Source: Rhizodiscina lignyota (Eukaryota). From it: DNA of 64,000 nt. The DNA is taken from the NCBI GenBank assembly GCA_010015805.1, contig ML978141.1:1-64000 (forward strand), read 5' to 3'. The position numbers were made by a program, and so were the translations under genes. Positions 2,890 to 29,424 of the stretch are shown in pieces. The notes below the pieces were generated by a model. The model was given only the letters and a program-made list of their open reading frames with translations, did no database searches and was not told the DNA's origin. Positions within the stretch are counted from its first letter, which is position 1, and every line of letters starts with the position of its first letter.

Positions 2890-4649
2890 TCAAAATTTGA
2901 CCTGAGAGAGTCCGCTATTTCGAATCCTCTCCCCATACTTCCAGAAGATCAGAGGGACTGGAGCGAAGGCCACCGCAATAAAACCCAGAAGTGATGTGCC
3001 CCATCCAACGCCAAGTGCATCATACATCCGATTACCTGCTAGCGGAAGCAGTGCTCCAAGCAGGGAGCGAGTGACAGTCGCTGCTGCAGTTGCCGAAGCA
3101 GCATAGACGGTGTAAGCATCAACAAGATACCCTAATGACGGCATCTAGGCAAAATCAGCTGCTTGCTTTGCGAGTTCAGTTGCTAGGCGGGTTACCATTA
3201 TATTGAACGTCGCAGCCCCAAGAAAAGCGGAGCCAATGATCGGAACAATCCAATGGACCTTCTTCTCTGCAGTCCAACCGTACAGAAATAATCCAATAGG
3301 CGCGATAATTGCGCCAACGAACAAGAGCGGGAGTCGATATTCCGGCTTTGCGGTTCCGCCATTGCGTTTTGTCAGGTATTTCACAAGCCGGTCAGAGGTC
3401 ATCCCGCTGAAGACCAAGGCAACGAGGAACCCGGCCCCAATCCCCAGATACACTAGCCCAACACTGGTGTCTGAGAAGCCGTATTGCCCTTTAAAGACTC
3501 GTGGGAAGGTCGTGAACATAAGGTATTGGTAACCATATATTGTTGCCATGTAGAGCGACAGCAGGAGAACAATCGGCGAAAGGAATAGCATCTTGAGAGG
3601 CCGGACAATGGCGGTTTTGAAAAGCTCCTTTGGGTCCTTGCCGCTGTCAAGAGCGGATCGAAGGCTTGAGTTGCCTGATTCCTTTCGTAGGCGCTTCGTC
3701 TTTCGTTCCAGGATCGCGTAGGCGTAGGATTCGTGCAAGAATAGCAGACTTACTAAGAATATGGCACCGGCCTAATATCATGAATGTCAGTTGCCGTTTG
3801 CATTTGAGATGCCAAGAGCTTACGAGTATCGACACCAACCAGAAAATCCATCGCCAACCCTTGGCCCGAGCAATATATCCAGCAACTAGTCACCATCAGT
3901 ATGGCTCGGTCGGCGGTATTTGACTCTCTCTCACCTAGTGGGCCGAGTGTAGGTCCGAGCACTGGGCCTAAGATCCACCCCATCATTGCGAGGCCTCTTT
4001 TCTCCAACGGAACCATGTCCGCGATCGTTCCCGCTCCGAGTATCAATGCAGCACTCCCAGCGAGTCCAGCGAAAAGGCGGAAGACGATCAGAGCGCTCAA
4101 GTTGTTGGCAAGAGCACAAGCAATGCTCCAGATCACAAAGAAGAAATTGCAGACGTTATAAACGATGGCGCGGCCGTACAACTCGGAGAGAGGAGCGAGG
4201 ACGAGGGGCCCGAAGACGTAGCCGAGGAGGTAGGACGAAGTTACAAAGATTTCTAGGGTCTCGTTCGTGGAGTGAAATGTCGCCATGATATCTGCACTGG
4301 CGGGCGAGGTGACGGTAGATCCAAAGGGACTGTGTAGCGTCAAACAGGGCCCAACTTGGTGGACAAGAAATACGTACGACAGAAAAGTAAGGATAGAGAC
4401 GATGCCAATGGCTGTGACCTTCTTCTTCAAAGACCAATTCATGGGATTTGCTGGGTCGTCAGGCCCGTCCCAGTCGACGATATTGGGGTCCTTTATTGGT
4501 TGTTCCCCTACAACAGTGTCCGAAGGAGCATTGTCGTGAACGGATTGTTTCTCGAGATCATCTTGGTACGAACGATCGTCGTTCTGGCTCTCGCCTTTTG
4601 CAGACGGCGGCGGTGTTGCTACTCTTCCGAATTCCTTGGTGGTGTCCAT
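2890..4649 (-). CDS. MFS drug:H+ antiporter (DHA1 family) multidrug transporter, multi-exon
   Basis: VDWDGPDDPANPMNWS, APLSELYGR, GPVLGPTLG, PEYRL and YLVDAY...ASATAA motifs typical of fungal DHA1. The ATG at 4649 gives MDTTKEF. Confidence 0.92.
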
Positions 4650-5211
4650 TGTGAGAAAGGAGAAGGGTTCAGATATTAGATCAAATGCAAGGAATGCTCT
4701 CAAATATAATCAGAGTGCGACCAGAATCTTGATTAAATGGCTCTGAACTTTAGAAAGAAGTGTACGATTGAACGAACTTATGAATCTGTTGAGATTCTCC
4801 AAAAAGGAGATCAACGGAAACTCCGCCCGCGGAGCTCAAGGCTTGTAACTTTGATAGCGAACATTTCGTCCGAAGAGCGACCCATGCTCTAGAGACTACG
4901 GAACAGCAAAAGATACGACTAGATACTTCGACTTTCCGCCGTTCTCCTTCGACTGGTGTCCTCGACGGAGAGACATCCTCTTATCAGAGACACTTCCTCC
5001 GAGCTATGTGGGCTTTTACTCTATCACTATCAGATTCTTGCTCTTGATTCATGACATCACGTCGAATCCAGATGTCTCAACTTCGTAGAGGGTCTTTAGG
5101 GTACTGAACAATATAGTAATAAATAAGAAAGGAATCCTGTGTGTTCAATATGTTGTACAATGTTGTAAGTCAGGGGGACGTGGCCAATGCTCAGACGCGC
5201 TAGAGCCTCAG

Positions 5212-6231: not shown

Positions 6232-7092
6232 ATGTCGTCCAACACGCCTGTCTGGCTCATCACTGCTAGCTCCTCTGGCTTTGGTCGCGCAGTGGCGCTC
6301 GAAGCATTAAAACGAGGCCACGAAGTCATCGCAACTGCTCGAAACCCATCAAGCAGTAAATTAGACGGATTACGATCAGCCGGCGCTGAAATTATCGCCC
6401 TTGACGTCACCTCACCGCTTCAAGATCTCCAAAGAACTATAGCGGGAGCCCTCTCCATTCACGGTCGCATCGATATCCTCGTCAATGCTGCTGGCTTTAT
6501 CTTGGAAGGCGCTCTCGAGGAGTGTACCCCAGAGGAAAGCCTTCAACAATTCAACACCAACGTATTCGGCACGATGAATGTCTCCCGTGCTGTACTCCCC
6601 TACATGCGTGCCCAGCACAGCGGCGTGATCGCAAACTTTGGCTCTGTCGGATCGTGGCGTGGTTCACCGGGTGTTGGCATGTACGAGACTTCCAAATGGG
6701 CGGTCAGTGGCCTAACCGAGTCGATGAGGCCGGAGCTTGAAGAGTTTGGAATCAAGGTGACTGTGATCGAACCAGGTTATTTTAGGACTGGATTTCTCAA
6801 CGATTCTGCCAGGGTGAAAGCAAGGCACATGGACGAGTACAAAGGATCCAAAGTCGAGGTATATAGGCAAGGGCTTGCGGCTAAAGATAATAAGCAGGCC
6901 AATGATGCTGCAAAAGGAGCTGAGCGGATTGTGGATGTCTTAACGCAGTCCGGCCGCGCGGCAGGGAGAGATATTCCGTTGAGGTTACCATTGGGCACGG
7001 ATGCGTATGGGATTATCAAGGCGAAATGTGAAGAGACAGTGAAATTGATGGATGAATGGAAAGAGATAATATGCGGTACCGAACATGATTGA
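6232..7092 (+). CDS. Classical short-chain dehydrogenase/reductase (17beta-HSD-like subgroup), intronless
   Basis: WLITASSSGFG Rossmann motif, VNAAG, catalytic YETSK, IEPGYFRT, LRLPLGTDA. Confidence 0.9.
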   Translation: MSSNTPVWLITASSSGFGRAVALEALKRGHEVIATARNPSSSKLDGLRSAGAEIIALDVTSPLQDLQRTIAGALSIHGRIDILVNAAGFILEGALEECTPEESLQQFNTNVFGTMNVSRAVLPYMRAQHSGVIANFGSVGSWRGSPGVGMYETSKWAVSGLTESMRPELEEFGIKVTVIEPGYFRTGFLNDSARVKARHMDEYKGSKVEVYRQGLAAKDNKQANDAAKGAERIVDVLTQSGRAAGRDIPLRLPLGTDAYGIIKAKCEETVKLMDEWKEIICGTEHD

Positions 7093-7960: not shown

Positions 7961-10671
7961 ATGACAGAGCCTGCTTCGAAGCGAAGGCGAGTCCCACAGG
8001 AACTTCGCAAGCGTTCAGAGCGGAGCTGTGACCAGTGCCGGAAAGTCTGTCTTCCATATTCCGATTCCGTGGCGAAGATTGGATCAAAATTAGGAACTCA
8101 CACTGAAACCAGCGTCGAGGCCGCTGCGAACGTTCGGCTGACAGCAACGAATGTGTTGCTTGTCGAATGAGCAAGACACCATGCACGTATGATATGCCGA
8201 GAAAGCCTCGCTTTCAAGGTAGCATTGATGAATTGAGCGGCCGGTATGCGCATGCGCTCACAAACACTCCCAGTTCTCATGTTAACTTTCTTAGATATCG
8301 CTGCCTTGATGCTATCGTGAGAGCGGCATTCCCGAATGACGCGATAGCTACCGTGGATGATCTCAGGCGTTTAGGTAAACGACTGGGGTATCAAATGCCA
8401 GAAACCCCAGATGAACCTCCTGTGGAATTAAAAGACCTTTTCGGGCCGTCGCGCTTGGCTACTGAGGATGCCAATTATGCGCCGGCTCCTCAAGTTGCGC
8501 TAGCAGAGGACGATGAAGGTACCACATCGCCAACATTTACAGCCGAAGACTTGGACTCTCCTGGCCTTGTTCGTGACTCAACTGGTCATGCTCATCACAT
8601 TGGACCATCTGGAAGTCTGGCCTTCTTTGCCTCACTGAGACATCTCATCGCTTCGAGATGTAATAGTGCTGCAAACAGTCTCAACCGTTCATCGGGGTTT
8701 GCCGATGATAATGCAGCAACGACACTTGAAAGCGATCGAACGCAGGATTCTGACGACCTGCCTAATGACTCAGCTAGGGAAGAAGACCCAGTGGCCGTTC
8801 AGCCGTCGCCATGCATATCTTCCCAAAGAAGCGACCATAAGCTGGAACAGCCGGACATGGCAGAACAGGAGAAAAATTTACCATCCTCCTCAATTATGAC
8901 TGAACTGATTCAGTCTTACTTTGATCACGTCCATCTCGACTTCCCCCTCTTTCACCGTGCAACATTTGAAGAGGAATATGAGTGTTTCATCCTTGGAGCG
9001 CGGTCAGACAGAAAGCGCCCTACAAATGGTTATCTACCATTCCCGGATTGTGGCTGGGGGTGGTTGGGTTGTCTCCATATGATGCTGGTCTTCGGTTCGC
9101 TCATTGGCGAAGCGCCAAATAGCGCCACTTGCCGATTACTTCGACGAAACTCGGTGTCGCTAGTCAGATCATTCCTTCCCCATATTGTAACCAAAAGCTC
9201 ACTGTGGAACGTTCGATGTCTCGTTCTGCTCTCGTTGTACCTGCACAACAACAGTGAACGGAATGCAGCTTGGATGCTTGCTGGAACCGCCACGAGAACT
9301 GCTCTGGCTCTCGGGTTACATCGGCGGGATCTTGACAGCTCGTTCCGGCCGATAGAGCGAGAAATGAGAAAACGAGCTTTTTGTTCCCTTTACAGCTACG
9401 AGCAATTCCTTTGCAGCACTCTTGGCAGGCCGAGTGGAATGGGTGATCCAGACGTAGAAGTTACCCCTCCGCGCGAGGGCTTCCTTTACAATGGCAACAC
9501 CATCACAGAGCTCACCGCTGCAAGTATGGAACTGCAAAAGCTTCTCTCCCGAACTCGCCGGGCTACCTCCACAGATGGCACAATTCTCGAAGCTCTCCGA
9601 AGATGGAAATCTCAATTACCGGAGTTCTTGGACTTGCCACGCTGTATTTCTTATCAAGATATTAGCATTCGCGGTTCGGCTTCCAACCCACCCGCCCACA
9701 AGCAGTTGCGGACTATTCTATCCCATCAACCGCCTGCGCGGGTCCGATCTGTGCTCCTACTACATATTCAATACCACTACATTGCAGTGCTTGTTACAAG
9801 GTCGGCATTACTGCATTTCGTCGCCTCTACATATGACGCTTCATCTGCAGCGGCACCAGGTCCTGGCCGGATTATGGAGTCCTCTGTAGACAGCGCAGAA
9901 GCAAGTGTGTACCACGCTTGCCAACTCTCTTCCCTAATAGGCATGCTCTACCGTTTCAATTTGTTACGAGGCGAGTCGGCGCTGGATGTGTTCTATGGGT
10001 ATTCCGCCGGTATGATATTGGTCCTTCGGCTTCTCTGCGCACCTCTCCCGGAAGGATCAACAACTACAGAAAGGGGTAGAGAGCTCCAGATTAGGGTCTA
10101 TCTCGAAAGTAACACGAGTTCATTGAGAGATGTCATTCGGAGAACGTCGAAATCGCCGACCATGATGCGCTTTGCATCTGTTCTGGAGTCGTTTTCAAGT
10201 CTCTTGTCAAATCCTATTCCACTGCAAACCACTGCGCATCCGAGCAGCAATTATGCTCAGACCGAATCTGCAAACGAAGCTAACCAGCATGCAATTGCAC
10301 CTCTACCTGCAGGCGCCGTCCTCGATATTGCCAATGCAAGCCCTACTGGAGTAACAAGCAACGGCACCAGAAACGCGCAGCTGAATACTGATATCTTTGG
10401 TGCCCGAATTGGTACTGATATGGGTTTGCCACGCTTCCACAATATTGGAATTGGGGAGAGTTATGACCGAAGTAACGAATCACCTAATAGACCCAATATC
10501 GCATTGACAACTAATACCGACAACACGTTTTCTCAAGCCGAAACTTTCGACGAACTCCCTCACCTGCCACTTGACTTCTCATGGTCTCCTCTTGAACATG
10601 ACCTTGGCGTTGGCTGGGCTGATTTCGAGTCACTCATTGGTGGTAATGACTTTGAATTTACCCAATTCTGA
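7961..10671 (+). CDS. Zn(II)2Cys6 transcription factor with fungal-specific TF domain
   Basis: SCDQCRK|RRGRCERSADSNECVACRMSKTPCTY once intron 8045-8112 is removed. A second intron lies at 8244-8294. YFDHVHLDFPLFH, ALALGLHR and LGRP middle-homology motifs. Acidic C-terminus. Confidence 0.92.
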
Positions 10672-10735: not shown

Positions 10736-12444
10736 TTACAGCGTGTACCTAAAGTCTGGATGCCTTTCGCCTAGTCTGCGCTGCTCCTCTTCGGGTAAAT
10801 CTCGAAGATGATCTCTATCTCCTCGGTCACGCTTCTTATTCTCAGCAGCGCAAAAGAAATACATTACTAATGCGGCGATGATCCCAGAAGCGGAGAAGGC
10901 AATACAAGTACCAAGTCCAGGGTAATAATGGGGCGTATCCTTCTGGGGAAAGACGACTTAAGCAATGATTCCACCGATTTGACCAAATCCGGCTGCAAAC
11001 GCAGTGAGAACTCCACGTTTTGTCTGGCCGACAACCTGGTTGACCCTTTACCAATAGTTAACTAGCGCTCTTGCAAGATGAAAGCGATGCAGGTGAATAC
11101 GCACCCCCATGCGATTACGAGCGCTTGGCAATTATATGTGCCAATAGCTGCAAGATACATCCCGAAATATCTTACCCCGACAGGTGAGACCAACATAACG
11201 AGAAGGTTGCCAACTACGGCCACTGCAAAGCTGGAGATGACGAACGGTGCTCGCTTCTTGACTTTGTCGGACCAAATTCCAACTGACACGGAGAAGATAC
11301 CTGAGACAGCACGTACCGGCGCGCTCAACAGATTCGACTTCAAATCGCTCCAGCCAAAAGCGCTCAGAATTGTCGGTTGAAAGATGGAAATGGCGTATGC
11401 TGCGACCGTAACAGACAAATACAACCATCCACTGCAGATGACTTTCCAGTCTGTGATGGCTTTAAGCGCACCAAGAAACCGGAGCTTCTCGTCCTTCCCC
11501 CTGCGGTCGTCGTCGCGCAGTCGTCTGACATACCAGTCTTTCTCTGCTGGCCTCAAGAAGGTAGATTTCTCCGGAAATGCTGGCAAAAACACAAATGACA
11601 CGATGGCCGCTATGCAAGTCATGGCCCCTTCGATGAAGAAGATCCAGGACCAACCAGAGTACCCTCCCGTCCCTTGGAGTGAGCCCAGTCCTGCACCGAG
11701 CAATCCCGAACCGATACCAGCAATGTCGTTTGACACAAACAGCCATGCGACTCTGGTGACCATTTCGTGTCTTCGGTACCAAGTCCCAATCAGAAAAAGA
11801 CAGCCAGGTAGCATACCGGCTTCGAAGAACCCGATGAGAACGCGAGCCGCTATCAGTCCCCCAGCTGACTTTGAGAAACCAGAGAATGTAATAGTAACTA
11901 TCAGAAGTGAGCTGATTGAGCGAATTTGAGATGTCTTTCGAACTTACGGCCCCAGCACATCGCAAGCCCGGAGATATAATATCTCGGAACAACACGATTC
12001 AGAATCATATTCGAGGGAATCTGTATTCCACCACCGTCAAGACAATGTCACCGGTAAAGCGTCGCTACCTCCTTACCTCGAACAGGATCAGCGGGACGTA
12101 GAAAACGAGTACTGCAACATTGTACTCATATCCATGCATATGCAAATCTTTTTCCATATTCCAAAGCCTTGCGTTACCGATGTTCACTCTGTCCAAAAAC
12201 GTGACAGTGTACAACAACACCAGGACCGGCATAAGCCGATAGTCAATCTTTTTAATTATTCTTTTCGCCTCAACTGGATCTTCTGCAGTCTCAATAATAG
12301 ACCTGTCTCAATTAGGATTTCAATCAAGGAATGGACGCAATTAAAGGCTCACCCAATGTCAGATGTTTGTTCTGTGACATTTCCTTTCTCTAAGTTCACG
12401 TCCGGCACCACGGGATCCGAGTTGTGTTGAGGCACCGTTGCCAT
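10736..12444 (-). CDS. MFS anion:cation symporter (allantoate/nicotinate permease, DAL5/TNA1-like), multi-exon
   Basis: DRVNIGNARL, GWSWIFFIEG and C-terminal HPDFRYTL* are hallmarks of fungal ACS permeases. The ATG at 12444 gives MATVPQHNS. Confidence 0.9.
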
Positions 12445-13096: not shown

Positions 13097-14474
13097 ATGC
13101 CTGCTGCCGCTGTCAAGAGAAACGTTCTCATCGTAGGTGCGGGTCTCGGTGGTCTGGCAGCATCCTTGGCTTTGCAAACGGATGGACACAACGTCACCAT
13201 AATTGATGCAGCACCGGAATTCGCTGAGGTATGTTCCCAATTCCTTGGCTTTCGAACATCAATTCACAAAGACTTTAGGCGGGAGCCGGCATTCGCGTAC
13301 CGCCGAACAGCTCCAGACTCCTCCTCCGCTGGGGTGTGGACATGGAGAATATGAAGAAGTCAACCTCGCAGATGTATCACTTTGTCCGATGGGAAGATGG
13401 CTCGACTATTGTCAAAATTCCATTTGGGCAGATTGTGGAGAATCATGGCGCACCGTACTGGCTCGTTCATAGGCACGACTTGCATAAAGGACTTCTGGAA
13501 GCTGCAGAACGGGCTGGTGTGAAAATTCTCAATAATAAGCATGTCACATATTACGATTTCAATACGCCCAGTGTCAAGACTCATGATGGTCAAGTCTTCA
13601 CGGGCGACTTGATCATTGCGGCAGATGGTAAGCCCACCTTCGGCGACGAGCGAAGACAATGATTCATAACGGCTACTCAGGCATAAAGTCGATCGCACGA
13701 CCGCAACTTACTGGACGCCCTGATATTCCACGCGACACAGGGGATGTAGCATACCGTATCCTCATTCCAGGCTCAGAACTCTTGAAAGATCCCGACTTGG
13801 CATCTCTCATCACTCACCCTGCAACCACCTCATGGTGTGGCCCGGAGGCGCATCTCGTTGGCTATCCAATCCGCGACGGTGATCTGTACAATATTGTCGT
13901 TTGCGCAACTTCGCACAACGAGACCACCGATGACACTTGGGTGGTTAAGGGCGACAATCGGGAACTTTGCCAGCGCTTTGGAAACTGGGAGCCAAGGGTA
14001 CAGAAACTGTGCGCGCTCACACAGGACTTTATGAAGTGGCGGCTGTGCGACCTCCCGGTGCTTACGAGCTGGGTGCATCCATCACAGAAAGTGTGTCTCC
14101 TTGGAGACTCGTGTCATCCGATGCTCCCATACCTTGCCCAAGGTGCTGCACAAGCCGTGGAAGATGCTGCGGTGCTTCGGCAATGCTTGGCTACCGAGAC
14201 GGATTTGGGGAGGGCACTGAAGAGATACGAGATGATTCGCTTGCCGAGAGCGTCACTCATACAGGCCAAGACGAGAGAGCACCAGTATATCTTGCACATC
14301 GACGATGGGACCGAGCAGGAGGACCGCGATGTCAAAATGAGCGTCAATGGAGAGGATAATCCAATATTTTGGGGCTGCAATGATCGAAGACACTGGTTAT
14401 TCAGCCATGATGCTGAAAATCTGAATAAGGAAGGCGCAAACTTTGACCAGGAATCAGTCTTTTCTCGTCTCTAG
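13097..14474 (+). CDS. Group A FAD-dependent aromatic monooxygenase (salicylate hydroxylase / 6-hydroxynicotinate 3-monooxygenase family), PTS1 SRL
   Basis: IVGAGLGG FAD motif, IIAADG, LLGDSCHPMLPYLAQGAAQAVEDA. Introns at ~13229-13278 and ~13628-13680. Ends SVFSRL*. Confidence 0.92.
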
Positions 14475-16073: not shown

Positions 16074-17698
16074 TTACATCCTCGCTTTTCCCACTTCTGA
16101 TGTCTCGTAGTCCTTGATCCACTCGTATTTATCGCCAAGGTATTTCTGCGCTCGCAAATCTCCGGATCGCGCGTGGCCTTCGAAGTTCTCTGCTCTTGAT
16201 GCCCTTCCGCAAAGTCTTCCCAACTCACCGCTTGCCTTTTCATTCTTGACTTCTTGATACGTTACTGTTCGAAGGAATTTCCCAACCCAGAGACCTCCAG
16301 TATATTTGGCGGCTTTCTTTGTAGGAAGCACGTGATTTGTACCAATGCACTGAAGAGATTATGAGATTGGCGGTCAACAGAGAATTTTGTGGCATCTTAC
16401 CTTGTCACCGTACGACACACAGGTCTTCTCGCCCAGGAATATGGCACCATACGCTGTCATTTTTTCCAGTGCTTCTCGTGGCCTTTGCGTGAGAATCTGG
16501 ACGTGCTCAGCGGCATATTCATCCGCAAGTTTGTATGCCTCATCCAGTGAGTCTACGACCACGACGTCGCCAAGTGTTTTGTACGATGTTCCTGCTAGCG
16601 CTGCGGTAGGTAATCCTTTCAGTAGCTCATCAATTATCTCCATTGACTTGCGCGCCACTCTTTCCGACGTGGTAATGATGGTAGTCGGAGAATCAGGTCC
16701 ATGCTCGGCTTGTGAGAGGATATCCGTGGCGACTGTGAATGGGTCTGCATGTTCGTCTGCTACGACGAGAATTTCGGTTGGTCCAGCAAAGAGGTCAATT
16801 CCGATCTCGCCGTACAACTGTTTCTTGCCCTCTGCTACGAACGCATTTCCTGGACCAGCAAGGAAGTCGACTTTCTTAATCGTCTCAGTGCCGCATGCCA
16901 TCGCAGCGATCGCTTGGACACCGCCCAGAATATGAATCTCGTCAGCTCCAGCTAGATGCATTGCTGCCACGGTTCCGTTTGGAATCTTTCCAGCAATGGG
17001 TGGCGTCATGGCAGTCACATGTTTAACACCAGCCACCTTGGCAGTCAGGATCGTCATGTGCGCGGATGCCAGTAGTGGGTAACGGCCTCCAGGGATGTAT
17101 GCTCCAGTGGTGTTGATAGGGATATTCTTTTGTCCAAGGAATACGCCCTGACGGATGTCAGCTTAAGCCGTACTGCAAGATAGATTAACGGCGAAACACA
17201 TACTGGCTGCATCTCCACTTCGAAATCTTTGAGAGATTCCTTTTGCGCTTCTGCAAATATCCTCACATTCTTTTGGGCCTCTTTGATGTCGTCAACTACC
17301 TGTTTCGGCAAGGCCGCAATTGCCTCATCAATCTCTTTCTGTGAAAGCTTTTTCGGCTCCCACTTGTCGAATTTCTGCGAGTACTTGCTGACAGCAGCAT
17401 CACCATTCTGGCGGACATCGTCAATGACACCCTTGACAATCGAGGCAACATCCAGTTGAGGAGAGGATGACGCGGAGGGTTGTTCTCCCTTCTTGAGGTA
17501 ATGGCGGCCCATGTTGGAAGACACACTTGCGTTGAAGCGGATTTGGTTGTTGGTGAAGTTACGCCCGTATCTCGGCCGATGTTCAAATTTAGAACTGGAG
17601 TTACAATGGCCAGCCGTGACGAGAGGCCTCAGCCCATTTCCCCGCGAGCAGACGGCATACCGCCCCCACCTGGAGAAGAGCAGCGCGGGGTTTGACAT
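16074..17698 (-). CDS. Stand-alone histidinol-dehydrogenase-family enzyme (HisD/HpsN-like), not the trifunctional fungal His4
   Basis: YIPGGRYPLLASAHM, LGGVQAIAAMACG, AGPGNAFVAE, IDLFAGPTE, LSQAEHG, AEHVQ, GDK|CIGTNHVLPT. Introns 17148-17203 and 16350-16400. No HisI/HisE domains upstream. Ends GKARM*. Confidence 0.92.
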
Positions 17699-18734
17699 GT
17701 TGGATTGCGCTGTAGAGTATCCGAACCCGCCGGACGTCTCAATGTACCTTACGAATAAGAAGAAATGAAGTGAGAGCTCGTAGATGGAGTCGGGGGCATA
17801 ACCGGGGGAAAAGCCGACCAGTAATGTGCGGCCGAACAGCGGAAACTCATTGGCCGGAAAGGGGCAAGACACAAGGAAAAGGTGCTTCTCATAGATTTGG
17901 CCGTTGCGGCAGGCCTACTGATCGAGGACACTTGCTATCACCAGAAAGATGAGCATAGCCTTATCTTGGTATATGCTATGATTTTTTGACACTATAGAGC
18001 TGCTCTTGAGGAGCGTGGCGGGGGTGTTTGTAGCTCCGAGCATAGGTTTATGTCGTATTCTCGCAGCCTAGCCGCTTTTGGAATAACGTAACTAGCCTAC
18101 CCTTGAGCAAGTTCAAAAGCCTCTTCACTTCCTTGGACTTTTCCTTCCTCATCAACGCTCTCTTGACACAGCCGACGTCGATGCTTACAGCTACTGTGCT
18201 GATGATGATCTTCAGGCGAATTAGACCTCGGCGAGAACCACGCCACCCGGCAAGTGCGACCAGTAGCTCGGTAGAGATGCACAATACGGAGTTTCACAAT
18301 ATTCAGACCGCCGATTAATATCCCAGGGCTACGTTGCTTAAGAGCCCGACAAAGTCAAACTATTCGATCGGGGGTCTGCGTTGTAAGAACCCCGATGCGG
18401 CCGATAGAAGACTCGCCGACTAAGGACCCTCCTTTTCGAGGTCGCCGAAGTCACGAAGTGGCATGGCGAGGCTAGTGCCTGTAAGGTACATGCTTACAGA
18501 GAGGGTTTGCTTATTTCATCGAGCTATCAGCCACCTCTGTCTGTTCTAGGTTAGAAACCACGATCATTATTCATATTTGAGTTAGTAAGTCATTTAGGAT
18601 TCTATGATACTCAATCCTCAGTTCGAAACTCGGAAGTATTTAAGAATACACATTTCTCCTGCGACGCTAGACTTTAGAGTCTGCATTTCATTTGCATCAA
18701 TACATAAAGCATTTATTTCACAGTGACCAATCAA

Positions 18735-19667
18735 ATGGCTGCAAAACCCGAGGTGCGCTGCTACTTCCACGCCGGTACGGGAACATGGCAATACCTGGTA
18801 TTCGATCCAAGTTCCCTTGAAGCATGCATCATTGATCCAGTGCTTGATTTCGACATAACTTCAAGCAAACTCGGAACGGAAACGGCAGATGAACTCATCT
18901 TTCGCATAAACGAGCTCGGCGTCATTGTCACTCGCATCATGGAAACACATGCTCATGCTGATCACCTCACTGCTTCTCGATACATTCAGCAAAAGCTTGC
19001 TCAGGATGGACATGTCCCACCGGACATATGTATCGGCAAGCGGATCAAGGAGGTACAGTCCACGTTTGCCCAGAAATATGGCATCAACCCTACAGAGCTT
19101 GAGAATGTGTTCGACCACCTGTTCGACGATGATGAGCATTTCAAGATTGGAAAAGTCAATTGCTCGGTCCTCTATCTACCCGGGCATACCCCTGATCACA
19201 TTGGATATATGATCGGCGACAACGTCTTCACTGGTGACTCCATTTTTAATCCAGACGTCGGATCAGCCCGCTGCGACTTTCCTAACGGCTCAGCTACCGA
19301 TCTCTACCGTTCAATGTCAAAGCTGCTATCTTTGCCAGGACATATTCGTCTCTATACTGGTCATGATTACCCTCCTGAAACACGCACAGCCACCGAGAGT
19401 GGTCAGAAACAGATGGCTTTCACCACAGTGGAGCAGCAGAACGAGAGCAACAAGCATGTCAAGCGTGGCACTCCCGAGGCGAGTTTTGTAAAGTGGAGGT
19501 CTGAGAGAGATGCGACACTTGGAGAGCCGCGCCTGCTACACCGGGCCCTGCAAATTAACATCAGAGCTGGACGCCTTCCGCCTCCATCTAAGAATGGAGA
19601 TCGACTTCTGAACATTCCAATCAAGGAGGATAAGGTGTTGTTTGATTTAATGGATTCGAAGCTGTAA
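18735..19667 (+). CDS. Persulfide (sulfur) dioxygenase-like metallo-beta-lactamase-fold protein (ETHE1/SdoA/Blh type), PTS1 SKL
   Basis: IIDPVLDFD, METHAHADHLT, LPGHTPDH, FTGDSIFNPDVGSARCDFP, GHDY, RDATLGEPRLL...NIRAGRLP. Ends MDSKL*. Confidence 0.85.
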   Translation: MAAKPEVRCYFHAGTGTWQYLVFDPSSLEACIIDPVLDFDITSSKLGTETADELIFRINELGVIVTRIMETHAHADHLTASRYIQQKLAQDGHVPPDICIGKRIKEVQSTFAQKYGINPTELENVFDHLFDDDEHFKIGKVNCSVLYLPGHTPDHIGYMIGDNVFTGDSIFNPDVGSARCDFPNGSATDLYRSMSKLLSLPGHIRLYTGHDYPPETRTATESGQKQMAFTTVEQQNESNKHVKRGTPEASFVKWRSERDATLGEPRLLHRALQINIRAGRLPPPSKNGDRLLNIPIKEDKVLFDLMDSKL

Positions 19668-19851: not shown

Positions 19852-20808
19852 TTATAACTTACTCGTCGAGATGACGTTCTTCAACTCCTGTCCCGCCAGG
19901 AACCTGCGTAGATTGTGCGCAATCAAAGCTTCACACTCTTGCGGCCTGCCACCTGCTGCATGCGGGCTGATGATACAGTTCGGTGCCTTATACAGCGGTG
20001 AGCTCTCCGGCAGCGGCTCCTTCTCGAACACATCAAGTGCGGCACCACCAATTACTCCATCCTCCAATGCTTTGACCAGCGCATCTTCGTCGATCGACGT
20101 GCCTCTTCCCACATTGATGATCCACGCATGATTAGGAAGCAGTTTGAGAGTCTTCTCATTTATCACATGTCGTGTAGCGGATGATCCTGGCAGAATCATG
20201 ACCAGTGCATCAGTTTGAGAGAATAGCTCAGGAATTTCGTCTTCGCCGTACACTTCGACTCCGTTTCTCACGCCAGCTGAGCGGGCTAAACCACGAACGT
20301 TCGCCCCGAGACTCACTAGGTGTGGAGTCAGCGTCTTTGCGATGTTTCCGAAGCCCCAGATGAGCACGTTGGCGCCACGGAGAGATGTGAACTTCCCCTT
20401 GGGGCGATCGGGTTGGGGTCCGCCGAGATGGCCGGGCCATTTGGACTGAACTTGGTAGTCGCGCATTTCGAAGAAGCGGCGGCAAGCATTGAGCAAAAGC
20501 CCGACTGCATGCTCTGCAACAGTGTGATCGTGGAGACCGGATCCGGTGGTGACAACCACAGACGAGGGAAACCCGGCGGCCAGGACGTCATTAGGACCAG
20601 CGGCGAGCGATTGGATCCACTTCACATTGCGCATGCGCTGAGCGGCGTCCTTGAGACACTGTGCACTGTTCGCCCAAGTCACCAAAAATTCGGCGTCGAT
20701 GAGATTCTCAGGAATTGTCTCTTTAGGGTTGTATGAATGTAGCGAGACCCCAAATCCTTCCAAGCTCTTTTCATCGATCACGAGCGACGTAGGATAGAGG
20801 AGCTTCAT
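19852..20808 (-). CDS. D-isomer-specific 2-hydroxyacid dehydrogenase, intronless, PTS1 SKL
   Basis: VAEHA, IWGFGNIA, INVGRG, AALDVFEKEPLP, SPHAAG. Ends ISTSKL*. Confidence 0.92.
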   Translation of the reverse strand: MKLLYPTSLVIDEKSLEGFGVSLHSYNPKETIPENLIDAEFLVTWANSAQCLKDAAQRMRNVKWIQSLAAGPNDVLAAGFPSSVVVTTGSGLHDHTVAEHAVGLLLNACRRFFEMRDYQVQSKWPGHLGGPQPDRPKGKFTSLRGANVLIWGFGNIAKTLTPHLVSLGANVRGLARSAGVRNGVEVYGEDEIPELFSQTDALVMILPGSSATRHVINEKTLKLLPNHAWIINVGRGTSIDEDALVKALEDGVIGGAALDVFEKEPLPESSPLYKAPNCIISPHAAGGRPQECEALIAHNLRRFLAGQELKNVISTSKL

Positions 20809-21614
20809 TGTGACGGACTGATTCAGGCCTCAGATCTTTCAATTGAAAACGTATGAAGTAGAGAATCGTGACTGAATGAAAATCAGAAAGACAATTGACG
20901 TTTCTCCGGACAGCGGAAAAGTGTATGGTTATATCCGCTTTCGGTGAAGATACGGAGCGATGCCCGAAAGTAGATATGGCCTGCCGTAGGGCATGAATGT
21001 CTCCCTCAGAATGCAGGGACAGCTTTCAGCCTCGCTATCTCTCGCCAAGATTGTGTTGTTTGGCCGTAGATGCATATCGGCCGAGTATTACAATACTTTT
21101 CAGAGCTCTGTTGGTCTATATCTTCAACTGACAACGTGACATAACAGGCATCTTGCGACACACCCTCCAACATTCTGTCCCTATCTAAGAGGAAACCGAA
21201 AGAAACCTGCCTCGTCGAAGCATATACTGCATATCGTGCTAGCTCATGAATTAACTAAGCGACGACTCTGGCTGCAAGCTCGGCCATGATACAGGATACT
21301 CTGGCAAGATGGCAATGGCATCAATCGACCCTCCGTGAACCACTCCTCAGCATTACAACGCGTACATCCCTGAGGACAGTGAAGGGTGACAATGCATTAT
21401 GATGCATGGGGAACTAGGGTTACAATTGTTATGGAGTGAACGGGTGGGGGAACGGCGAGATATCAGGCACATGTCTGCGAAAGGCTCAAGATGTCTATTC
21501 AGCATCTGGAACTCCTCATCTCCGCTTCAAAGGGCAATAGATAGCCCATTGGAACGACTTCAAATCTGGCGTATCATACCAGGTTACTGCATCAGGTTCC
21601 TTCACTCTTCTAGA

Positions 21615-21848: not shown

Positions 21849-23135
21849 TAAGACCTACGACTTAATGCGTTTGTAATAAGTTCTAGATGGCATACCTTGT
21901 ACATCAATTGCCTCACAGGGCCAAAGGTGAAATAATCAACTCCAATTTTCATCTCGGCTCGTTCCAGGGCAGCAGTTCTTGGGTTCTTAAAGGCCCTGTA
22001 AGGGAGGCGATAGCAATTTCACTGTTGTCAAAATAACCATGAAGTGAATATTCATCATAATGTGTCATTAACCATTGCAATTTTAGGCCGAGACAGTCAT
22101 TCCTTGCTCCTGGCCAACCATAATTCTGTAAGGACATTAGAATCACCTTCCAATACCGAGAGGTAGGCCATCAAGTAGAACTATTCCGGCCTTTGCTGAA
22201 GAGAACATTTCCACTAAATTCATGATAAGGTGAACAAATTTCGGAGGTCGGTGGGCCTCAAACTCGATCACACTGAAGCACCTCCCTTGAGACTCCGCCT
22301 CAGAACATTCAACTCGTTCAGTCCACGTCAAAAGGAGGTGAATCGGATACTGATCCAATACTCCAGATTGGTGATCTCCGCTCGCCGCATGTGAGGTCCA
22401 ACATCGAAAGCGGTCCGTTACGGTAATCATATCGACCGCCGCCTAGCGTGGATTGCGTGCTCAAACACGTGACCTCGCACGCAATATCATATAACAACCT
22501 CACCTCTCTTCTCTATGAGATTCCTCAGACTGCTCATACCAATGATTGAATGATACAAATGGTGTATACCCCACTAATGGGACTCAAATGTGAGTTGTGT
22601 GGCCCTTCTGAACTCTCTGATGCTTGCCGGCAAGTAACCGCAGAGTTCGACATTTCAATCTCGTCGCAAATTTCGCTCCCATGTTCATACGTCTTGCTAA
22701 GCTTCAACATATTTCATATTTTGTTCTCCTTTATGTCTCGGTCCTCTTTTCAATCTCCGTGTTGAGTCTTCATGCATGTCTCGTGACTCTGTCCGCCGGT
22801 CGCCATCTCCAACTCGACGGCGACGTCGACGCCGACCTTCCAAGTCAAGGAGGAACCTTAGTGATGCCCGCCGCATTCAATCCGCTCCACGCTGACTCGG
22901 ATGGGCCTCAATTATGGACTGTACCTGGCATCCGACGACCTCACGGAGGAGAAGGGGCCTATGGTGCGGGGCAAGTTTGACCTGGTCGGCGACCTGGAAA
23001 ATGCCGCGTGGTCATCCTCAGCGCTCTCCACCTCCTCTCCTTATCACGCCTTGTATGTCAAACCCATCATAATTCCGGCCATCGCTAGAGATATCATTCT
23101 TTCCAGCACTATAGAGCGTACCTCCTAGAGCCGCA

Positions 23136-24872
23136 ATGGCTTCCAAGCTCTTTTCTCCGGTCGGTCCCGGTGGCTTCATTCTCCTGCGGACTGGTGTGCC
23201 CGAACGCTTCACCGCCAGTACAAGGACACGAGCACCATTTCGTGATATCTTCCGATCATTCCAAACATTGCCACCTCGTCAGCCAAAAAGACCACTAGGG
23301 TGGCGAAAATTACTCAACTCCCCAGTGTACGGCCCATTCAGGAAACTTCATACCGCCATCGGCATAACCAAGTTCCCGAAGAGCATCTTGCTCCTTGGCG
23401 GACTACCGTTCATTCCACTTCTAGGTACAGCTTGGACTGAAGAGGATGAGACGACGACCGAAATTCCTGGAGAAGGACCTCCAAAGCTACCAAAGTTTCG
23501 ATTCTCCGACGTGCAGCAACATGGCTCGAAACACGAAAACCCTTGGATTATCAGAGGGACAAAAGTCTACGATATCACAGACTGGGTTGCTGCACATCCT
23601 GGTGGAGAGATCATTCTTCGGGCTGCAGGTGGAAGCGTTGAGCCATACTGGAAAATTTTCAAAATCCACGAGAAACAATTCGTCTACGATATTCTGGAGC
23701 AATACCTGATCGGCACTGTTGACGAACGTGATCTGGTCGACGGAAAGGTACCCCTTGAGAATATTGAAGACCCATTCGCCACCGACCCCATTCGCGACGC
23801 CCGGTTGAGGACACTCACCGACAAGCCATGCAATGCTGAAACACCTGGCGAAGTACTCAAGGATTACATCACCCCAAATGAAGTATTCTATGTCCGCAAC
23901 CATATGTGGGTACCCATTGTCGATGATACATATCGCCTTACCATTGAGCTTGCGGATGGATCCGAAGCATCATACTCTCTGCAGGACCTCAAGGATAAGT
24001 TCAAGAAGTACACCATCACGTCTGTCATGCAATGTTCAGGGAACCGTCGTAAGCAAATGAACGACAGCGTGCGGCCCACGAACGGCCTTCAGTGGACTGT
24101 GGGTGGCATTGGAAACGCTACATGGGCCGGTGTACGATTACGTGACGTTCTCGCCGATGCAGGCTTCTCAGTCGACGACCCACCGGAAGATTCTCAACAC
24201 GCTCAATTCATGGGCCTTGAAGCTTACGGTGGCTCTATTCCTATTGGTAAGGCCGTAGATGCTCATGGCGACGTTCTACTCGCATACGAGATGAACGGCG
24301 AGACTCTCCCTCCCGACCACGGTCATCCGATCCGCGTTGTTGTGCCCGGCCATGTTGCAGCACGGAGTGTCAAGTGGCTCAGCAAGATCACAATTTCAGA
24401 CGACGAGTCGATGTCCCAGTGGCAACGGAAAGACTACAAATGCTTCGGCCCAAACGAAGCGGGGAAGGAAAACTGGGCCAAAGCGCGATCGATCCAAGAG
24501 ATGCCAATCACGTCTGCCTTTACCTCCGTCTCGAAAATTAGCGACGAGCTCGTCGCGCACGGCTTCGCATACTCTGGAGGAGGGCGAGAGATTGTCCGGG
24601 TCGACGTTAGTGAAGACAATGGCAAAACGTGGAAGCAAGCGGAGTTGGTCGATGGAGATCGAAAAGGGCATAAAGCGTGGGCATGGAAGCGTTGGAAATA
24701 TCAGATCTCTCCAGAAGGCGCTGCGAATGGTGCTGAGCTCGTAGTGAAGGCCACCGACGAGGCGTACAATACACAGCCGGAACGGTACGACGCCATATAC
24801 AATGTCAGAGGCAATCTTGCTACAGCATGGCACAGAGTCCAGTTGAAGGAAGGGCGCGTTGATGGACTTTGA
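23136..24872 (+). CDS. Sulfite oxidase (presequence + cytochrome b5 + Moco + dimerisation domains), intronless
   Basis: Arg-rich presequence and hydrophobic stop-transfer stretch. b5 motif VYDITDWVAAHPGG. FYVRNH, Moco cysteine in QCSGNRR, DHGHPIRVVVPG, SVKWL, AYNTQPE. Confidence 0.95.
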   Translation: MASKLFSPVGPGGFILLRTGVPERFTASTRTRAPFRDIFRSFQTLPPRQPKRPLGWRKLLNSPVYGPFRKLHTAIGITKFPKSILLLGGLPFIPLLGTAWTEEDETTTEIPGEGPPKLPKFRFSDVQQHGSKHENPWIIRGTKVYDITDWVAAHPGGEIILRAAGGSVEPYWKIFKIHEKQFVYDILEQYLIGTVDERDLVDGKVPLENIEDPFATDPIRDARLRTLTDKPCNAETPGEVLKDYITPNEVFYVRNHMWVPIVDDTYRLTIELADGSEASYSLQDLKDKFKKYTITSVMQCSGNRRKQMNDSVRPTNGLQWTVGGIGNATWAGVRLRDVLADAGFSVDDPPEDSQHAQFMGLEAYGGSIPIGKAVDAHGDVLLAYEMNGETLPPDHGHPIRVVVPGHVAARSVKWLSKITISDDESMSQWQRKDYKCFGPNEAGKENWAKARSIQEMPITSAFTSVSKISDELVAHGFAYSGGGREIVRVDVSEDNGKTWKQAELVDGDRKGHKAWAWKRWKYQISPEGAANGAELVVKATDEAYNTQPERYDAIYNVRGNLATAWHRVQLKEGRVDGL

Positions 24873-27621: not shown

Positions 27622-29424
27622 TCACAGCCTCGACCTGATTTTGCTCCACAGCCCATGTCGTTGTAGGTTCGCTTCTCCGTCATATATATCTCGCTCCACA
27701 GCACGGACGTTGATCTGTGAGCCGGTCAGTATGTCATTTTGCTGGGGAGGAGAGAGGCTGTCACGTACATGATGCATGCCCAAGTCTTCGACCTTCTCAG
27801 CACCTAGCAGTCGCATGCAAGTCTCGGTCTCAGCTTTCAATACTGTATCAATGTCAGTCAGTATTCCATTATAAGGCCGGGAGCTCTCGACAAACGTACT
27901 CTCAAACACGCGCTCCACACCCTCAATACCTCCCGCTCCAAGAGCAAATAGCGGCGGTCTTCCGATTCCAACACCCTTCGCGCCCAAGCACAGCGCCTTG
28001 ACGACATCCGTGCCACGCTTGATACCGCCGTCTACCCAGACCTCGATCCGGTCAAAGACCTCCGGGCAGTATTTACGGATTTCCAGAAGCGTGTGCACGG
28101 CCGGTGGAGCAGTGTCGAGTGCTCTGCCACCGTGATTTGAAAGAATGATGGCTTTGACCTGCGGCGCGTACTGACTCGCTATGTAGGCATCCTCATGAGT
28201 CTGTACGCCCTTCAATACAATAGGGAGTTTCGTGTGTTTCGCAAGCCAAGGAAGTGTCGTTTGCCACGTCAAGTCCGGCGCTGTTCCCGCGAAAAGCGCG
28301 ACTCCTACTCCACCTGATCCTGGTGCATCCGGCGCAGACGAGCCCGACGTCGCTGCTCCTGTATTCGGTGCTGTGGATGTGCTTGCCGTAGATCCAGATT
28401 CGCTCTGCACCGCAGCCTTGACCGGCAAGTTGCTCCCAATATTCTTCGAACGCTCATCGTGCTCTCGCTTCCCCGGCACCGGCGCATCGAGCGTCAGAGC
28501 GATGAACTTGATTTGGGCTAGCTTGTTGATTCTCGCAATCATCTTCTCGCTCTTCGCACGGTTCGTCTGCACGTATAGCTGCCAGCCGAAGATCTGTCCG
28601 GGTGCGGAGTCCTTAACAATGTCCTCAGGTGTCTGACTCGCGTTGTTGCTGATGACCTGCAGAGCGCCGTATTTGGCTGCAGCCTTTGCGATGCCGTTCT
28701 CACCCGCAGGGTGAGCAAGTCTTGCCATAGCTGCTGGAGAAACGTAGATTGGGAGGTTGACTTTGTGTCCAAGGAATGTCGTCGATGTATCGCAGTTTGT
28801 GCAGTCGACGAATATTCGTGGCCGGAGGAGAATTTGTCGATACACAGTGTTGTTCAGTTGCTTCGACATCAGGTCGTCTCCTGCAGAATAGTAGTATGCC
28901 CATGCTTTCTTCCTCAACCGCGGAGTTGCCGCAGCTTCTATGTCTTCTATGTTCAACAGGCTCGAGAGGTCCACCGGCTCGTTCCTCGCAGCTTTGGCGG
29001 CCGAGTCCGAAAACACGTCCGACTCAATCGCTTCCTCCAGCCGCTTTTGTGACCTCGGTGTAAGCTGGAGACCCTCGGCTTCGCCCGTCTCGACTTCGGT
29101 CTTTTCAACTTGTGGAAGTGTCTTGGGGTCTATTGTGCCGAGCTTCGCGGACGGTTTGAGATTCGACTCGAGGGTGCCTGGAGGATGGACGGGATCGTAC
29201 TCTTCTGTGGCATCTTGGCCTGCGAGCTGGAGAATGATTTTCGATCCGCCAGGATGGGACGAGAGGAAATCGGTTACGTCGTAGACGGCGCCGTAGAGGA
29301 TGACCCAGCAGCTGTCTGGCGAGTTGTGCTTGGAAACTATACATCCGTTAGTTCGATTGGGTCTCTAAATCAAGAAACTGATGCCAGAATACATGCCTTC
29401 ATCGTACGAAAACACCTTCGACAT
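27622..29424 (-). CDS. Flavocytochrome b2 (cytochrome b5 + FMN alpha-hydroxyacid dehydrogenase), no mitochondrial presequence, PTS1 SRL
   Basis: [14 protein letters not shown] heme domain. [37 protein letters not shown]. Introns 29337-29396 (GC-AG), 27843-27899 and 27715-27768. Ends KIRSRL*. Confidence 0.93.

Follow-up and report, generated by a model that had tools for sequence, protein, structure and literature searches.

Sequence comparison places a stand-alone HisD-family gene of Rhizodiscina lignyota in a third, uncharacterised clade of the superfamily

A 64,000-nucleotide stretch of the Rhizodiscina lignyota genome (contig ML978141.1 of assembly GCA_010015805.1, positions 1 to 64,000; hereafter the window) carries a stand-alone paralogue of histidinol dehydrogenase (HisD) which, judging by its residues and its place in phylogenetic trees, is a member of a third, uncharacterised clade of the HisD superfamily, of neither HisD nor HpsN type. 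On balance, we regard the product as a catabolic Zn2+/NAD+ four-electron dehydrogenase of this clade, neither a histidinol dehydrogenase nor a bona fide HpsN; by analogy with these two enzymes, its substrate is probably anionic and not histidinol. In the available text of the literature found, two functions of the superfamily are described, namely the oxidation of histidinol and the oxidation of DHPS or cysteinolate. The window gene marks a large third clade, whose bacterial members belong to a strongly conserved, uncharacterised LacI-controlled operon. The substrate of the clade, once found, would assign a function to that whole pathway. It would also correct a systematic annotation error, since all three clades look alike to the NCBIfam hisD model, and would put on record that a catabolic enzyme passed long ago from a bacterium to a fungus. 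Since the window gene is itself an already annotated and ordinary-looking orthologue, the interest attaches to the clade and not to the locus.

The gene occupies 16074-17512 on the minus strand, with a possible start at 17698, and its three exons encode a product of 443 amino acids (Table 1). Joined at canonical GT..AG sites, these exons give a protein identical, letter for letter, to the database entry P0001, which is named "histidinol dehydrogenase 1 [Rhizodiscina lignyota]". A preliminary description of this DNA had placed a gene with two introns at 16074..17698. The gene is real and both introns are reproduced through P0001; the lower end stands, whereas the upper end is an upstream in-frame ATG and the database model starts at 17512. 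The two ATGs share the context CCAACATG, and the downstream one agrees with where bacterial relatives and most fungal orthologues begin; the alignment with CpHpsN begins at residue 5 in both proteins. The 62-codon extension between them is rich in Arg and Ser and poor in acidic residues (R+K 9, D+E 1 of 62). Because comparable extensions occur in at least five of the 120 homologues listed, a longer and possibly organelle-targeted form is possible. Exon 2 holds GGRYPLLASAHM, GPGN, SQAEH, AEH and GDK, and intron 2 splits GDK from CIGTNH exactly. Four fungal metagenome loci (L175, L178, L179 and L183) are likewise interrupted at about residues 352/353 of the protein, and five (L172, L177, L184, L185 and L194) have one near residues 105-120, a range set by imprecise HSP ends.

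Table 1. Parts of the HisD-family gene and their positions in the window
Feature	Coordinates	Strand	Description
Possible N-terminal extension	17513..17698	-	62 codons; upstream in-frame ATG; no Pfam domain
Exon 1	17204..17512	-	residues 1-103; database-model ATG at 17512, start MGRHYLKK
Intron 1	17148..17203	-	56 nt, GTATGT..CGTCAG, phase 0, after residue 103
Exon 2	16401..17147	-	residues 104-352; 100% identical to P0001
Intron 2	16350..16400	-	51 nt, GTAAGA..CTTCAG, phase 0, K352/C353 boundary
Exon 3	16074..16349	-	residues 353-443 and stop; begins CIGTNHVLPT; holds GGLWVGK, R401 and EGH (E409/H411)

Family and motifs can be read directly from the protein. Its sole Pfam domain is PF00815 (Histidinol_dh), which spans profile positions 9-410 of 411 over the three exons (96-345 in exon 2, E 6e-91; 348-410 in exon 3). 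Cyclohydrolase and pyrophosphatase domains were found by Pfam neither in the gene, as the preliminary description had said, nor in its 62-codon upstream extension, nor in the 16 long window ORFs scanned at 4-31 kb. The gene is thereby confirmed as a stand-alone HisD-family dehydrogenase paralogue. The motifs listed earlier (SQAEH, AEH, GD, EGH and YLKK) are all present in P0001: YLKK at residues 5-8, SQAEH with Q249 and H252, AEH with E317 and H318, GDK with D351 and K352 followed by CIGTNHVLPT, and EGH with E409 and H411. Nine residues (Q249, H252, E317, H318, D351, K352, H358, E409 and H411) are invariant across 27 fungal orthologues. Under the roles given in the accessible portion of PMC11382572, all Zn ligands (Q249, H252, D351 and H411) and the catalytic pair (E317 and H318) are kept.

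The clade is likewise observed directly. Its signature is GG[RK]YP[LM]xASAHM, GDK[CV]IGTNH and GGLWVGK, and the residues Q80, H133, V319, I354, C399 and F408 are found in this clade only. In a tree of 72 rows, all 16 fungal rows form one clade (SH-aLRT 98), which is joined by the Actinomycetes rows (99) and then by the proteobacterial rows (98); the HpsN-type rows, the Cupriavidus HpsN orthologue among them, make up a separate clade (97). A tree of 73 rows gives the same picture, with 35 fungal rows (99), 17 Actinomycetes rows (96) and the two joined at 99, all trees being 'quick' searches with SH-aLRT support only and an assumed root. The clade ranges over Proteobacteria (many), Actinomycetes (21 of 401 sampled genomes) and Pezizomycotina, and its fungal copies form one group, sister to the Actinomycetes copies, inside an otherwise bacterial assemblage. 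Most likely, a fungal lineage got the gene once from a bacterium in an old transfer, the direction of which is suggested by this nesting, and the introns were gained later; the trees fit the bacterial origin followed by intron gain that had been raised before. The clade members examined bear the name "histidinol dehydrogenase" or none, and the automatic JGI name on the relatives P0065 and P0274 differs.

Histidinol dehydrogenase of ascomycetes is the C-terminal domain of His4. In fungal His4 this domain is fused to HisI/HisE, whereas the window protein is unfused, and it is very improbable that the gene, true to its database name, encodes a second, redundant enzyme for histidinol. The protein does share with HisD (E. 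coli 1k75) and with the His4 C-terminal domain the Pfam family, the Zn ligands and the Glu-His pair, so that every catalytic and Zn residue of HisD is kept, and it passes the equivalog-domain cut-off of the NCBIfam hisD model TIGR00069 (436.7 against 243.8 bits). However, an HpsN orthologue passes it too, at 425 bits, so the model cannot separate the functions, and the mislabelling by automatic annotation that had been predicted is seen in both the NCBI name and this score. The replacement of GDY by GDK reported in the preliminary description is upheld, since Lys352 stands where 27 of 27 HisD-type rows have Tyr; in addition, Ser130 (27/27) is replaced by Ala and Pro138 (26/27) by Thr, and identity to five canonical HisDs is about 36%. 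A canonical GDY HisD is kept beside the clade member in all five bacterial genomes tested, one of which also has an HpsN orthologue. Starred branches of both trees part the window protein from HisD/His4-type sequences, and a clade that unites P0464, a row of His4 architecture (HisI-HisE-HisD), with the fungal paralogues is rejected by the AU test at p = 3e-70, in trees built without a verified fungal His4 sequence; the phylogenetic check proposed earlier thus shows no grouping with HisD. CpHpsN has no activity on histidinol according to the part of PMC11382572 available. As for further His4 sequences, no named fungal one is among the best 120 matches of the homologue search with P0001. The 860-residue P0175 was tried as a His4-type control and set aside as bacterial: NCBIfam describes it as a HisA-HisIE-HisD fusion, and those of its relatives that have a name belong to Phycisphaerales, Gemmatimonadota and Palauibacter. 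A function as organosulfonate 3-dehydrogenase of the DHPS/cysteinolate type, that is, as HpsN, is unlikely as well. Under this scheme sulfolactate or cysteate would be desulfonated, and the freed sulfite would be oxidised by the sulfite oxidase encoded nearby. The protein is indeed closer to HpsN than to HisD, as had been described: by phmmer against the PDB, its top solved relatives are the sulfopropanediol 3-dehydrogenase 8v35 of Cupriavidus pinatubonensis (CpHpsN, 361 bits) and the (R)-DHPS dehydrogenase 8wwe (343 bits), as against 248 bits for EcHisD 1k75, and identity to the Cupriavidus HpsN orthologue is 44.8%. Like HpsN, it is a stand-alone PF00815 protein of about 440 residues with the Zn ligands, the Glu-His pair and the Lys of GDK. 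K352, E317, H318 and D351 align with Lys353, Glu318, His319 and Asp352 of HpsN, and Lys353 hydrogen-bonds the sulfonate in the accessible text of PMC11382572. Five residues (A130, T138, P257, K352 and R401) are common to the window clade and HpsN and absent from HisD, and JGI gives P0065 and P0274 the automatic name 'sulfopropanediol 3-dehydrogenase'. The AU test does not reject a tree with the window clade and the HpsN type as sisters (p = 0.096), and as HpsN is also the best-scoring solved relative, a sulfonate or HpsN-like substrate is possible. However, the residue that sets DHPS dehydrogenases apart, caps the Zn and binds the sulfonate is His126 of the motif G-R-Y-A/S-H, as stated in the available part of PMC11382572, and its position is taken by Leu in the window protein (GRYPL), in contrast to GRYAH in the Cupriavidus HpsN orthologue (L091). 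In the 80 bacterial loci that a search with the window protein gave, GDK is always present and this position is either Leu or Met, never His, in a sample that is biased because DKCIGTNH was one of six search patterns. HpsN further reads GDKTSGPNH, GGLSV and ASAYM where the window protein reads GDKCIGTNH, GGLWV and ASAHM. HpsN-type rows form their own clade (support 97 to 100) without the window protein, and in Cupriavidus sp. H19C3 an HpsN orthologue (GRYAH, GDKTSGPNH), a HisD and a member of the window clade coexist in one genome. The genes hpsO/hpsP and those for sulfolyases (SuyAB, Xsc, CuyA) are absent from the 13 neighbour families found most often at 68 bacterial loci; those ten with an NCBIfam match include neither a sulfolyase nor an HpsP-type dehydrogenase, so that hpsO/hpsP/suyAB-type neighbours are not recurrent around the relatives. 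None of these genes is present in the fungal loci examined or among the window ORFs scanned, and the 16 ORFs at 4-31 kb show no sulfolyase-like domain. The earlier match to HpsN therefore holds for overall similarity and fails for the sulfonate-binding His, the clade and the neighbours. According to the portion of PMC12814064 available, the HpsN of Bilophila/Desulfovibrio acts on L-cysteinolate, which shows that enzymes from this part of the HisD family take substrates other than DHPS. Its authors report 55% identity to CpHpsN and the same substrate-binding residues. That enzyme resembles the proposed one as a HisD-family member recruited to the catabolism of a C3 alcohol with an anionic group (PMC12814064, same portion); it differs in that the window protein has no His126 and no cuyA/cuyB/cuyC-type gene linkage in the loci examined.

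The relatives lie in conserved catabolic clusters. Within 7 kb at 68 loci of proteobacterial type, the neighbours include a LacI-type regulator (57 loci), an SDR (56), a bicupin (48), a PcaD-like alpha/beta hydrolase (44), an HpcH/GarL-like aldolase (39), double SnoaL-like proteins (32) and an SSF transporter (24). Cupriavidus, Vibrio, Pseudoalteromonas and Marinomonas are among the carriers of this conserved operon. Thirteen top neighbour families occur at six or more of these loci each; ten have a family match (regulators, SDR, alpha/beta hydrolase, aldolases, transporters, a receptor and a MetE-like protein), and the three without an NCBIfam match are the bicupin, the SnoaL-like protein and one of 468 aa. 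Look-ups of the bicupin and the double SnoaL protein in the PDB and the ESM Atlas gave generic names only. Among Actinomycetes loci, the set of SDR, SnoaL, bicupin and hydrolase is found in 4 of 16 and LacI in 9 of 16. An SDR often adjoins the relatives, but SDRs are generic. It is rather improbable that the enzyme serves a specialised, secondary-metabolite-like pathway instead of nutrient catabolism. Its substrate would then be a larger molecule, possibly aromatic or heterocyclic, with a hydroxymethyl group to be oxidised. In four independent fungal metagenome loci, the orthologous neighbours are a CocE/NonD hydrolase, an SDR, a cupin, an FAD monooxygenase-ADC fusion and a BBE-like oxidase, and fungal clusters around relatives also hold two SDRs, an MFS transporter and a Zn2Cys6 factor. 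These genes would suit such a pathway, as would the fusions of Actinomycetes relatives with a BBE/EncM/6-HDNO-like flavin oxidase (P0273 and P0275) and the SnoaL-like proteins of the bacterial operon, which are named 'ester cyclase'; another relative (P0288) is fused to an SDR and a hydrolase. However, the ORFs scanned in the relatives' loci and in the window at 4-31 kb include no core biosynthetic enzyme (PKS, NRPS or terpene synthase), and the LacI-type repressor, solute symporter and pyruvate-forming aldolase of the bacterial operon are typical of catabolism. Such neighbours are missing from the window copy: it lacks the cluster of the other fungi, and tblastn of the bacterial operon and fungal cluster proteins against the window gave generic SDR matches only, plus one FAD monooxygenase paralogue (32% identical). 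Since this copy belongs to a fungal subclade other than that of the cluster-embedded copies, their context may not transfer to it. What surrounds it is a divergent persulfide-/sulfur-dioxygenase-like gene 1.2 kb off (286 bits to the dioxygenase part of NF040641), a D-2-hydroxyacid dehydrogenase gene 2.3 kb away and a gene for a cyt-b5/Moco sulfite oxidase at 5.6 kb. These neighbours possibly point towards sulfur and would then speak for the organosulfonate scheme above and count against a catabolic reading without a sulfonate. We consider it highly unlikely that they form, with a mitochondrial third-branch enzyme acquired from bacteria, a eukaryotic pathway that turns a C3 organosulfur alcohol (DHPS, cysteinolate or a thiol-diol) into pyruvate and sulfate. 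Such a pathway, if true, would be the first fungal dissimilatory short-chain organosulfur pathway of its kind, and its enzyme would be HpsN-like with a re-engineered binding loop, His133 being in place of His126. When the window neighbours were compared by tblastn with the fungal metagenome loci, no persulfide dioxygenase, 2-hydroxyacid dehydrogenase, sulfite oxidase or cytochrome b2 was found, and the first three are missing near the gene in L175, L178, L179/L180 and L185.

For the favoured catabolic dehydrogenase of the third clade, a mechanism can be proposed by analogy with HisD and HpsN. A primary alcohol would be converted through a bound aldehyde to a carboxylic acid in an NAD+-dependent, four-electron oxidation. 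The enzyme would be a dimer, with the Zn held by Gln249, His252, Asp351 and His411 of the partner subunit. At this metal, the C2-OH or C2-NH2 of the substrate and a distal polar or anionic group may bind, and His318 with Glu317 would serve as acid/base through two hydride transfers. Lys352 and Arg401, which are common to HpsN and absent from HisD, are kept and thus suggest an anionic group on the substrate, while the loss of the sulfonate-binding His126 of HpsN and the clade-specific His133 suggest a ligand other than DHPS. The resulting 2-hydroxy or 2-amino acid could be supplied to downstream dehydrogenases, hydrolases and aldolases. Substrates with pyridoxine-type hydroxymethyl groups, kojic acid, 3,4-dihydroxybutanoate, KDG and 1,2-propanediol were considered on general chemical grounds and dropped as claims.

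A literature search of article texts found neither the third clade nor any stand-alone HisD paralogue from fungi to have been characterised. The one fungal mention found at the level of a gene, in the accessible part of PMC5371717, is that of AN2723 in a table of NapA-dependent genes.

The HisD-like gene of this dothideomycete is a single long interrupted reading frame on the minus strand (16074-17698), and its product is P0001 (443 aa), a database protein named "histidinol dehydrogenase 1 [Rhizodiscina lignyota]" in one source. Joining the three exons listed in the table rebuilds P0001 letter for letter, and the introns of 56 and 51 nt are both GT..AG. PF00815 is the sole Pfam domain and spans the whole length; Pfam found no cyclohydrolase or pyrophosphatase domain in the protein or in its 62-codon upstream extension, as the preliminary description had stated, and the motifs listed there (YLKK, SQAEH, AEH, GDK followed by CIGTNHVLPT, and EGH) all occur in P0001. 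Its gene at 16074..17698 is likewise confirmed, with 17698 as a candidate start beside the 17512 of the database model. Arg, Ser and Thr abound in the 62-residue extension, which has only one acidic residue; extensions of like character are annotated in at least five of 120 listed homologues (P0058, P0069, P0080, P0096 and P0097), and the context CCAACATG is common to both candidate ATGs. The extension may be a mitochondrial presequence.

Parts of the HisD-like gene and its neighbours in the window
Feature	Coordinates	Strand	Basis
Exon 1 of HisD-like gene	17512..17204	-	P0001 match
Exon 2 of HisD-like gene	17147..16401	-	P0001 match
Exon 3 of HisD-like gene	16349..16074	-	P0001 match
Possible N-terminal extension, 62 codons	17513-17698	-	in-frame ATG at 17698 upstream of database ATG at 17512
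MBL-fold protein, persulfide/sulfur-dioxygenase-like	18708-19667	+	286 bits to dioxygenase part of Blh sulfurtransferase/dioxygenase model NF040641
D-2-hydroxyacid dehydrogenase (D-isomer-specific)	19852-20829	-	Pfam and PDB matches
Sulfite oxidase, SorA/SoxC/SorT-like	23115-24872	+	cytochrome-b5 and molybdopterin domains
Cytochrome-b2-type FMN dehydrogenase (FMN_dh and Cyt-b5)	27622-29364	-	Pfam
Fungal-specific transcription factor, two MFS transporters, FAD_binding_3 monooxygenase (listed together)	8107-10671, 3753-4709, 11062-11943, 13279-14474	+, -, -, +	

The solved structures that best match P0001 are the sulfopropanediol 3-dehydrogenase CpHpsN (8v35, 361 bits) and an (R)-DHPS dehydrogenase (8wwe, 343 bits), with the best histidinol dehydrogenase at 248 bits. 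P0001 shares 44.8% identity with a Cupriavidus HpsN orthologue; against five canonical bacterial HisDs the figure is about 36%, against proteobacterial relatives 54-56%, and a Blastococcus protein reaches 68%. Excerpts of PMC11382572 report that a G-R-Y-A/S-H motif sets DHPS dehydrogenases apart, that its last residue, His126 of CpHpsN, caps the zinc and then becomes a sulfonate ligand, that Lys353 makes a further sulfonate contact, and that HisD reads G-S-A-P-L in place of the motif. The window protein has G-R-Y-P-L there but keeps the Lys of HpsN; read from its aligned residues, it is a hybrid that falls outside the published definition of HpsN. Across 58 focal, 5 HpsN-type and 27 HisD rows, Q80, H133, V319, I354, C399 and F408 are confined to the focal clade, whereas A130, T138, P257, K352 and R401 are common to this clade and the HpsN type and absent from HisD.

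Three quick maximum-likelihood searches agree with one another, the runs being short, with an assumed root and SH-aLRT support in place of bootstraps. In tree 1 (72 rows, LG+C20 PMSF), all 16 fungal rows fall into a single clade (SH-aLRT 98), which groups first with two Geodermatophilaceae rows and P0121 (99) and next with 14 proteobacterial rows (98); five rows of the HpsN type make up a separate clade (97), and the remainder are GDY rows. Tree 2 (73 rows, LG+G4, HpsN-type root) takes in 16 Actinomycetes copies and eight fungal metagenome copies, the latter as composites of HSPs, and makes fungi (35 rows, 99) and Actinomycetes (17 rows, 96) sister groups (joint 99) with Proteobacteria outside (97). 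In tree 3 (71 rows, LG+G4, with AU test), His4 is represented by P0464, a row of that domain architecture (HisI-HisE-HisD, 808 aa), which clusters with canonical HisD; joining it to the fungal paralogues is rejected (p = 3e-70), and the focal clade as sister to the HpsN type is not (p = 0.096). P0175, meant as a His4 control, is a bacterial HisA-HisIE-HisD fusion. Two bacterial/metagenome relatives kept out of the trees, P0005 and P0065, have a stretch of the HisD-like domain duplicated internally, which probably arose in assembly or gene calling.

A scan of bacterial genomes gave 80 loci, and in this sample, biased by the inclusion of DKCIGTNH among six search patterns, all 80 read GDK[CV]IGTNH…GGLWV, and the His126 position is always Leu or Met in place of His. 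A canonical GDY HisD stands alongside the focal-clade relative in all five bacterial genomes searched with PF00815. In Cupriavidus sp. H19C3 a third PF00815 gene matches the HpsN motifs GRYAH and GDKTSGPNH exactly, and because all three occur there, the focal type, HpsN and HisD are paralogues coexisting in one genome.

Organism-named matches among the best 120 are all fungi, which we take to be entirely Pezizomycotina, except one Streptomyces protein. Copies at E ≤ 1e-120 occur in 21 of 401 sampled Actinomycetes genomes, and the fungal clade sits nested within bacterial clades. The gene phylogeny fits a single ancient transfer into Pezizomycotina, for which the nearest donors in the sample are Actinomycetes-like bacteria; its direction depends on the assumed root and the otherwise bacterial membership. 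The fungal gene tree departs from the species tree, with Aspergillus copies interspersed with those of Dothideomycetes and a Leotiomycetes copy with those of Pleosporales (tree 2), a mismatch that hints at old paralogy or transfers between fungi. Metagenome contigs hold ten interrupted, fungal-looking copies; four loci are interrupted at about 352/353, as by the window intron, and five near residues 105-120, matching the window's other intron. Bacterial copies are uninterrupted.

Neighbours of proteobacterial-type relatives were counted within 7 kb at the 68 of 80 loci where the ORF caller kept the focal gene (12 were dropped), of which only 49 extend 3 kb or more in both directions; families were named with Pfam at ten loci and with NCBIfam for cluster representatives, every assignment falling short of the equivalog cut-off. 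The 68 loci yielded a LacI-type regulator (57), an SDR (56), a bicupin of about 330 aa (48), a PcaD-like alpha/beta hydrolase (44), an HpcH/GarL-like aldolase (39), double SnoaL-like proteins (32) and a sodium:solute symporter (24), with an RraA/CHA-aldolase-like gene in six. No sulfolyase was identified among their 13 commonest neighbour families, three of which have no NCBIfam match. A strongly conserved LacI-controlled operon (L007, L015, L020, L039, L047, L077 and others; marine Gammaproteobacteria and Burkholderiales) contains the HisD-like gene, SDR, bicupin, PcaD-like hydrolase and HpcH/GarL-like (or RraA-like) aldolase, together with an SSF symporter and two double SnoaL-like proteins. 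Of the 16 Actinomycetes loci (out of 22) in which the focal ORF was retained, nine have LacI and four combine SDR, SnoaL, bicupin and hydrolase; a second group has an aldehyde dehydrogenase (five loci) and a phosphoglucomutase-like gene (six loci). Fusions join the HisD-like domain to a BBE/EncM/6-hydroxy-D-nicotine-oxidase-like flavoprotein (P0273 from Trebonia, and P0275), to SDR and hydrolase (P0288) and to a GH3 domain (P0274). In P0278-P0287 (about 835 aa), an HpsN-like PF00815 domain, whose identity to the window protein is 43-45%, is fused to DegT/aminotransferase domains (PF01041, PF00155), reminiscent of the cysteinolate pathway formed by HpsN and CuyC in PMC12814064; in P0280, a eukaryote-database protein, PF00815 is fused to a sodium:alanine symporter domain.

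Fungal metagenome copies with flanks (L175, L178, L179, which nearly equals L180, L185 and partly L194) have orthologous neighbours at 54-78% identity. Their cluster encodes a CocE/NonD-type hydrolase, an SDR with a small cupin, an FAD monooxygenase fused to an acetoacetate-decarboxylase-like domain, a second SDR with a BBE-like FAD oxidase, and an MFS transporter with a Zn2Cys6 factor. From bacterial and fungal loci together, focal-clade genes therefore recur in catabolic-looking clusters with SDR, cupin and hydrolase.

By homology, the product would be a dimeric Zn/NAD+ enzyme oxidising a primary alcohol via the aldehyde to the acid; neither its metal ligands nor its Glu-His pair vary across 27 fungal orthologues. 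The alignment suggests a substrate with an anionic group, because Lys352 and Arg401 are kept, and a ligand other than DHPS, because His126 is replaced by Leu and the clade-specific His133 is present, two residues past the conserved Ser131. We favour, as reasonably probable, a catabolic dehydrogenase of the third clade with a probably anionic substrate. An HpsN-like sulfonate function would agree with the sister placement that the AU test did not reject, but Leu at the His126 position sets the protein outside HpsN and makes this function unlikely; the tailoring of a specialised metabolite ranks just below it as a doubtful alternative. The preliminary description's HpsN-like label holds for the Lys of GDK and the closest solved structures, but not for the His126 position or the clade, which is separate. 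Its doubt about histidine synthesis is shared here, with a GDY HisD beside the relatives and the P0464 grouping rejected, and a place in the histidine pathway is very unlikely. That the protein is a true histidinol dehydrogenase is highly improbable: it passes the NCBIfam hisD model at 437 bits, but so does an HpsN orthologue at 425 (HisD, 534). The model passes all three kinds, and the name is wrong across the whole focal clade. The gene already has a database entry and belongs to a known family with common orthologues; new is the recognition of the window gene and many misnamed relatives as one functional clade of their own, which comes with an operon conserved in bacteria and a cluster in fungi. 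We found no characterisation of this clade in the literature.

Searched by tblastn, the window lacks the cluster genes of bacterial and fungal relatives, giving only generic matches to SDRs (6256-6789 and 62635-63450) and an FAD monooxygenase (13462-14276, 32% identity). Counterparts of the window neighbours were not found next to the HisD-like gene in the other fungal loci examined, those with flanks belonging to subclades other than the window copy's (tree 2) and L184, the sole locus of its own subclade, being too short. The transcription factor, MFS pair and FAD_binding_3 monooxygenase lie 1.6-12 kb past the HisD-like stop codon, towards lower coordinates, where there is also an SDR. On the other side, the MBL-fold gene is divergent from the HisD-like gene across a shared intergenic region of 1.2 kb, and its PDB matches include ETHE1 persulfide dioxygenase. 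It lies 3.4 kb from the sulfite oxidase, and the two look like a sulfide-to-sulfate oxidation pair. A sulfur link of the HisD-like gene is suggestive, and a persulfide dioxygenase beside a sulfite oxidase makes sense even without that gene. The D-2-hydroxyacid and cytochrome-b2-type dehydrogenases both have 2-hydroxy acids as substrates, which is also the product type expected of a HisD-family enzyme acting on a 1,2-diol.
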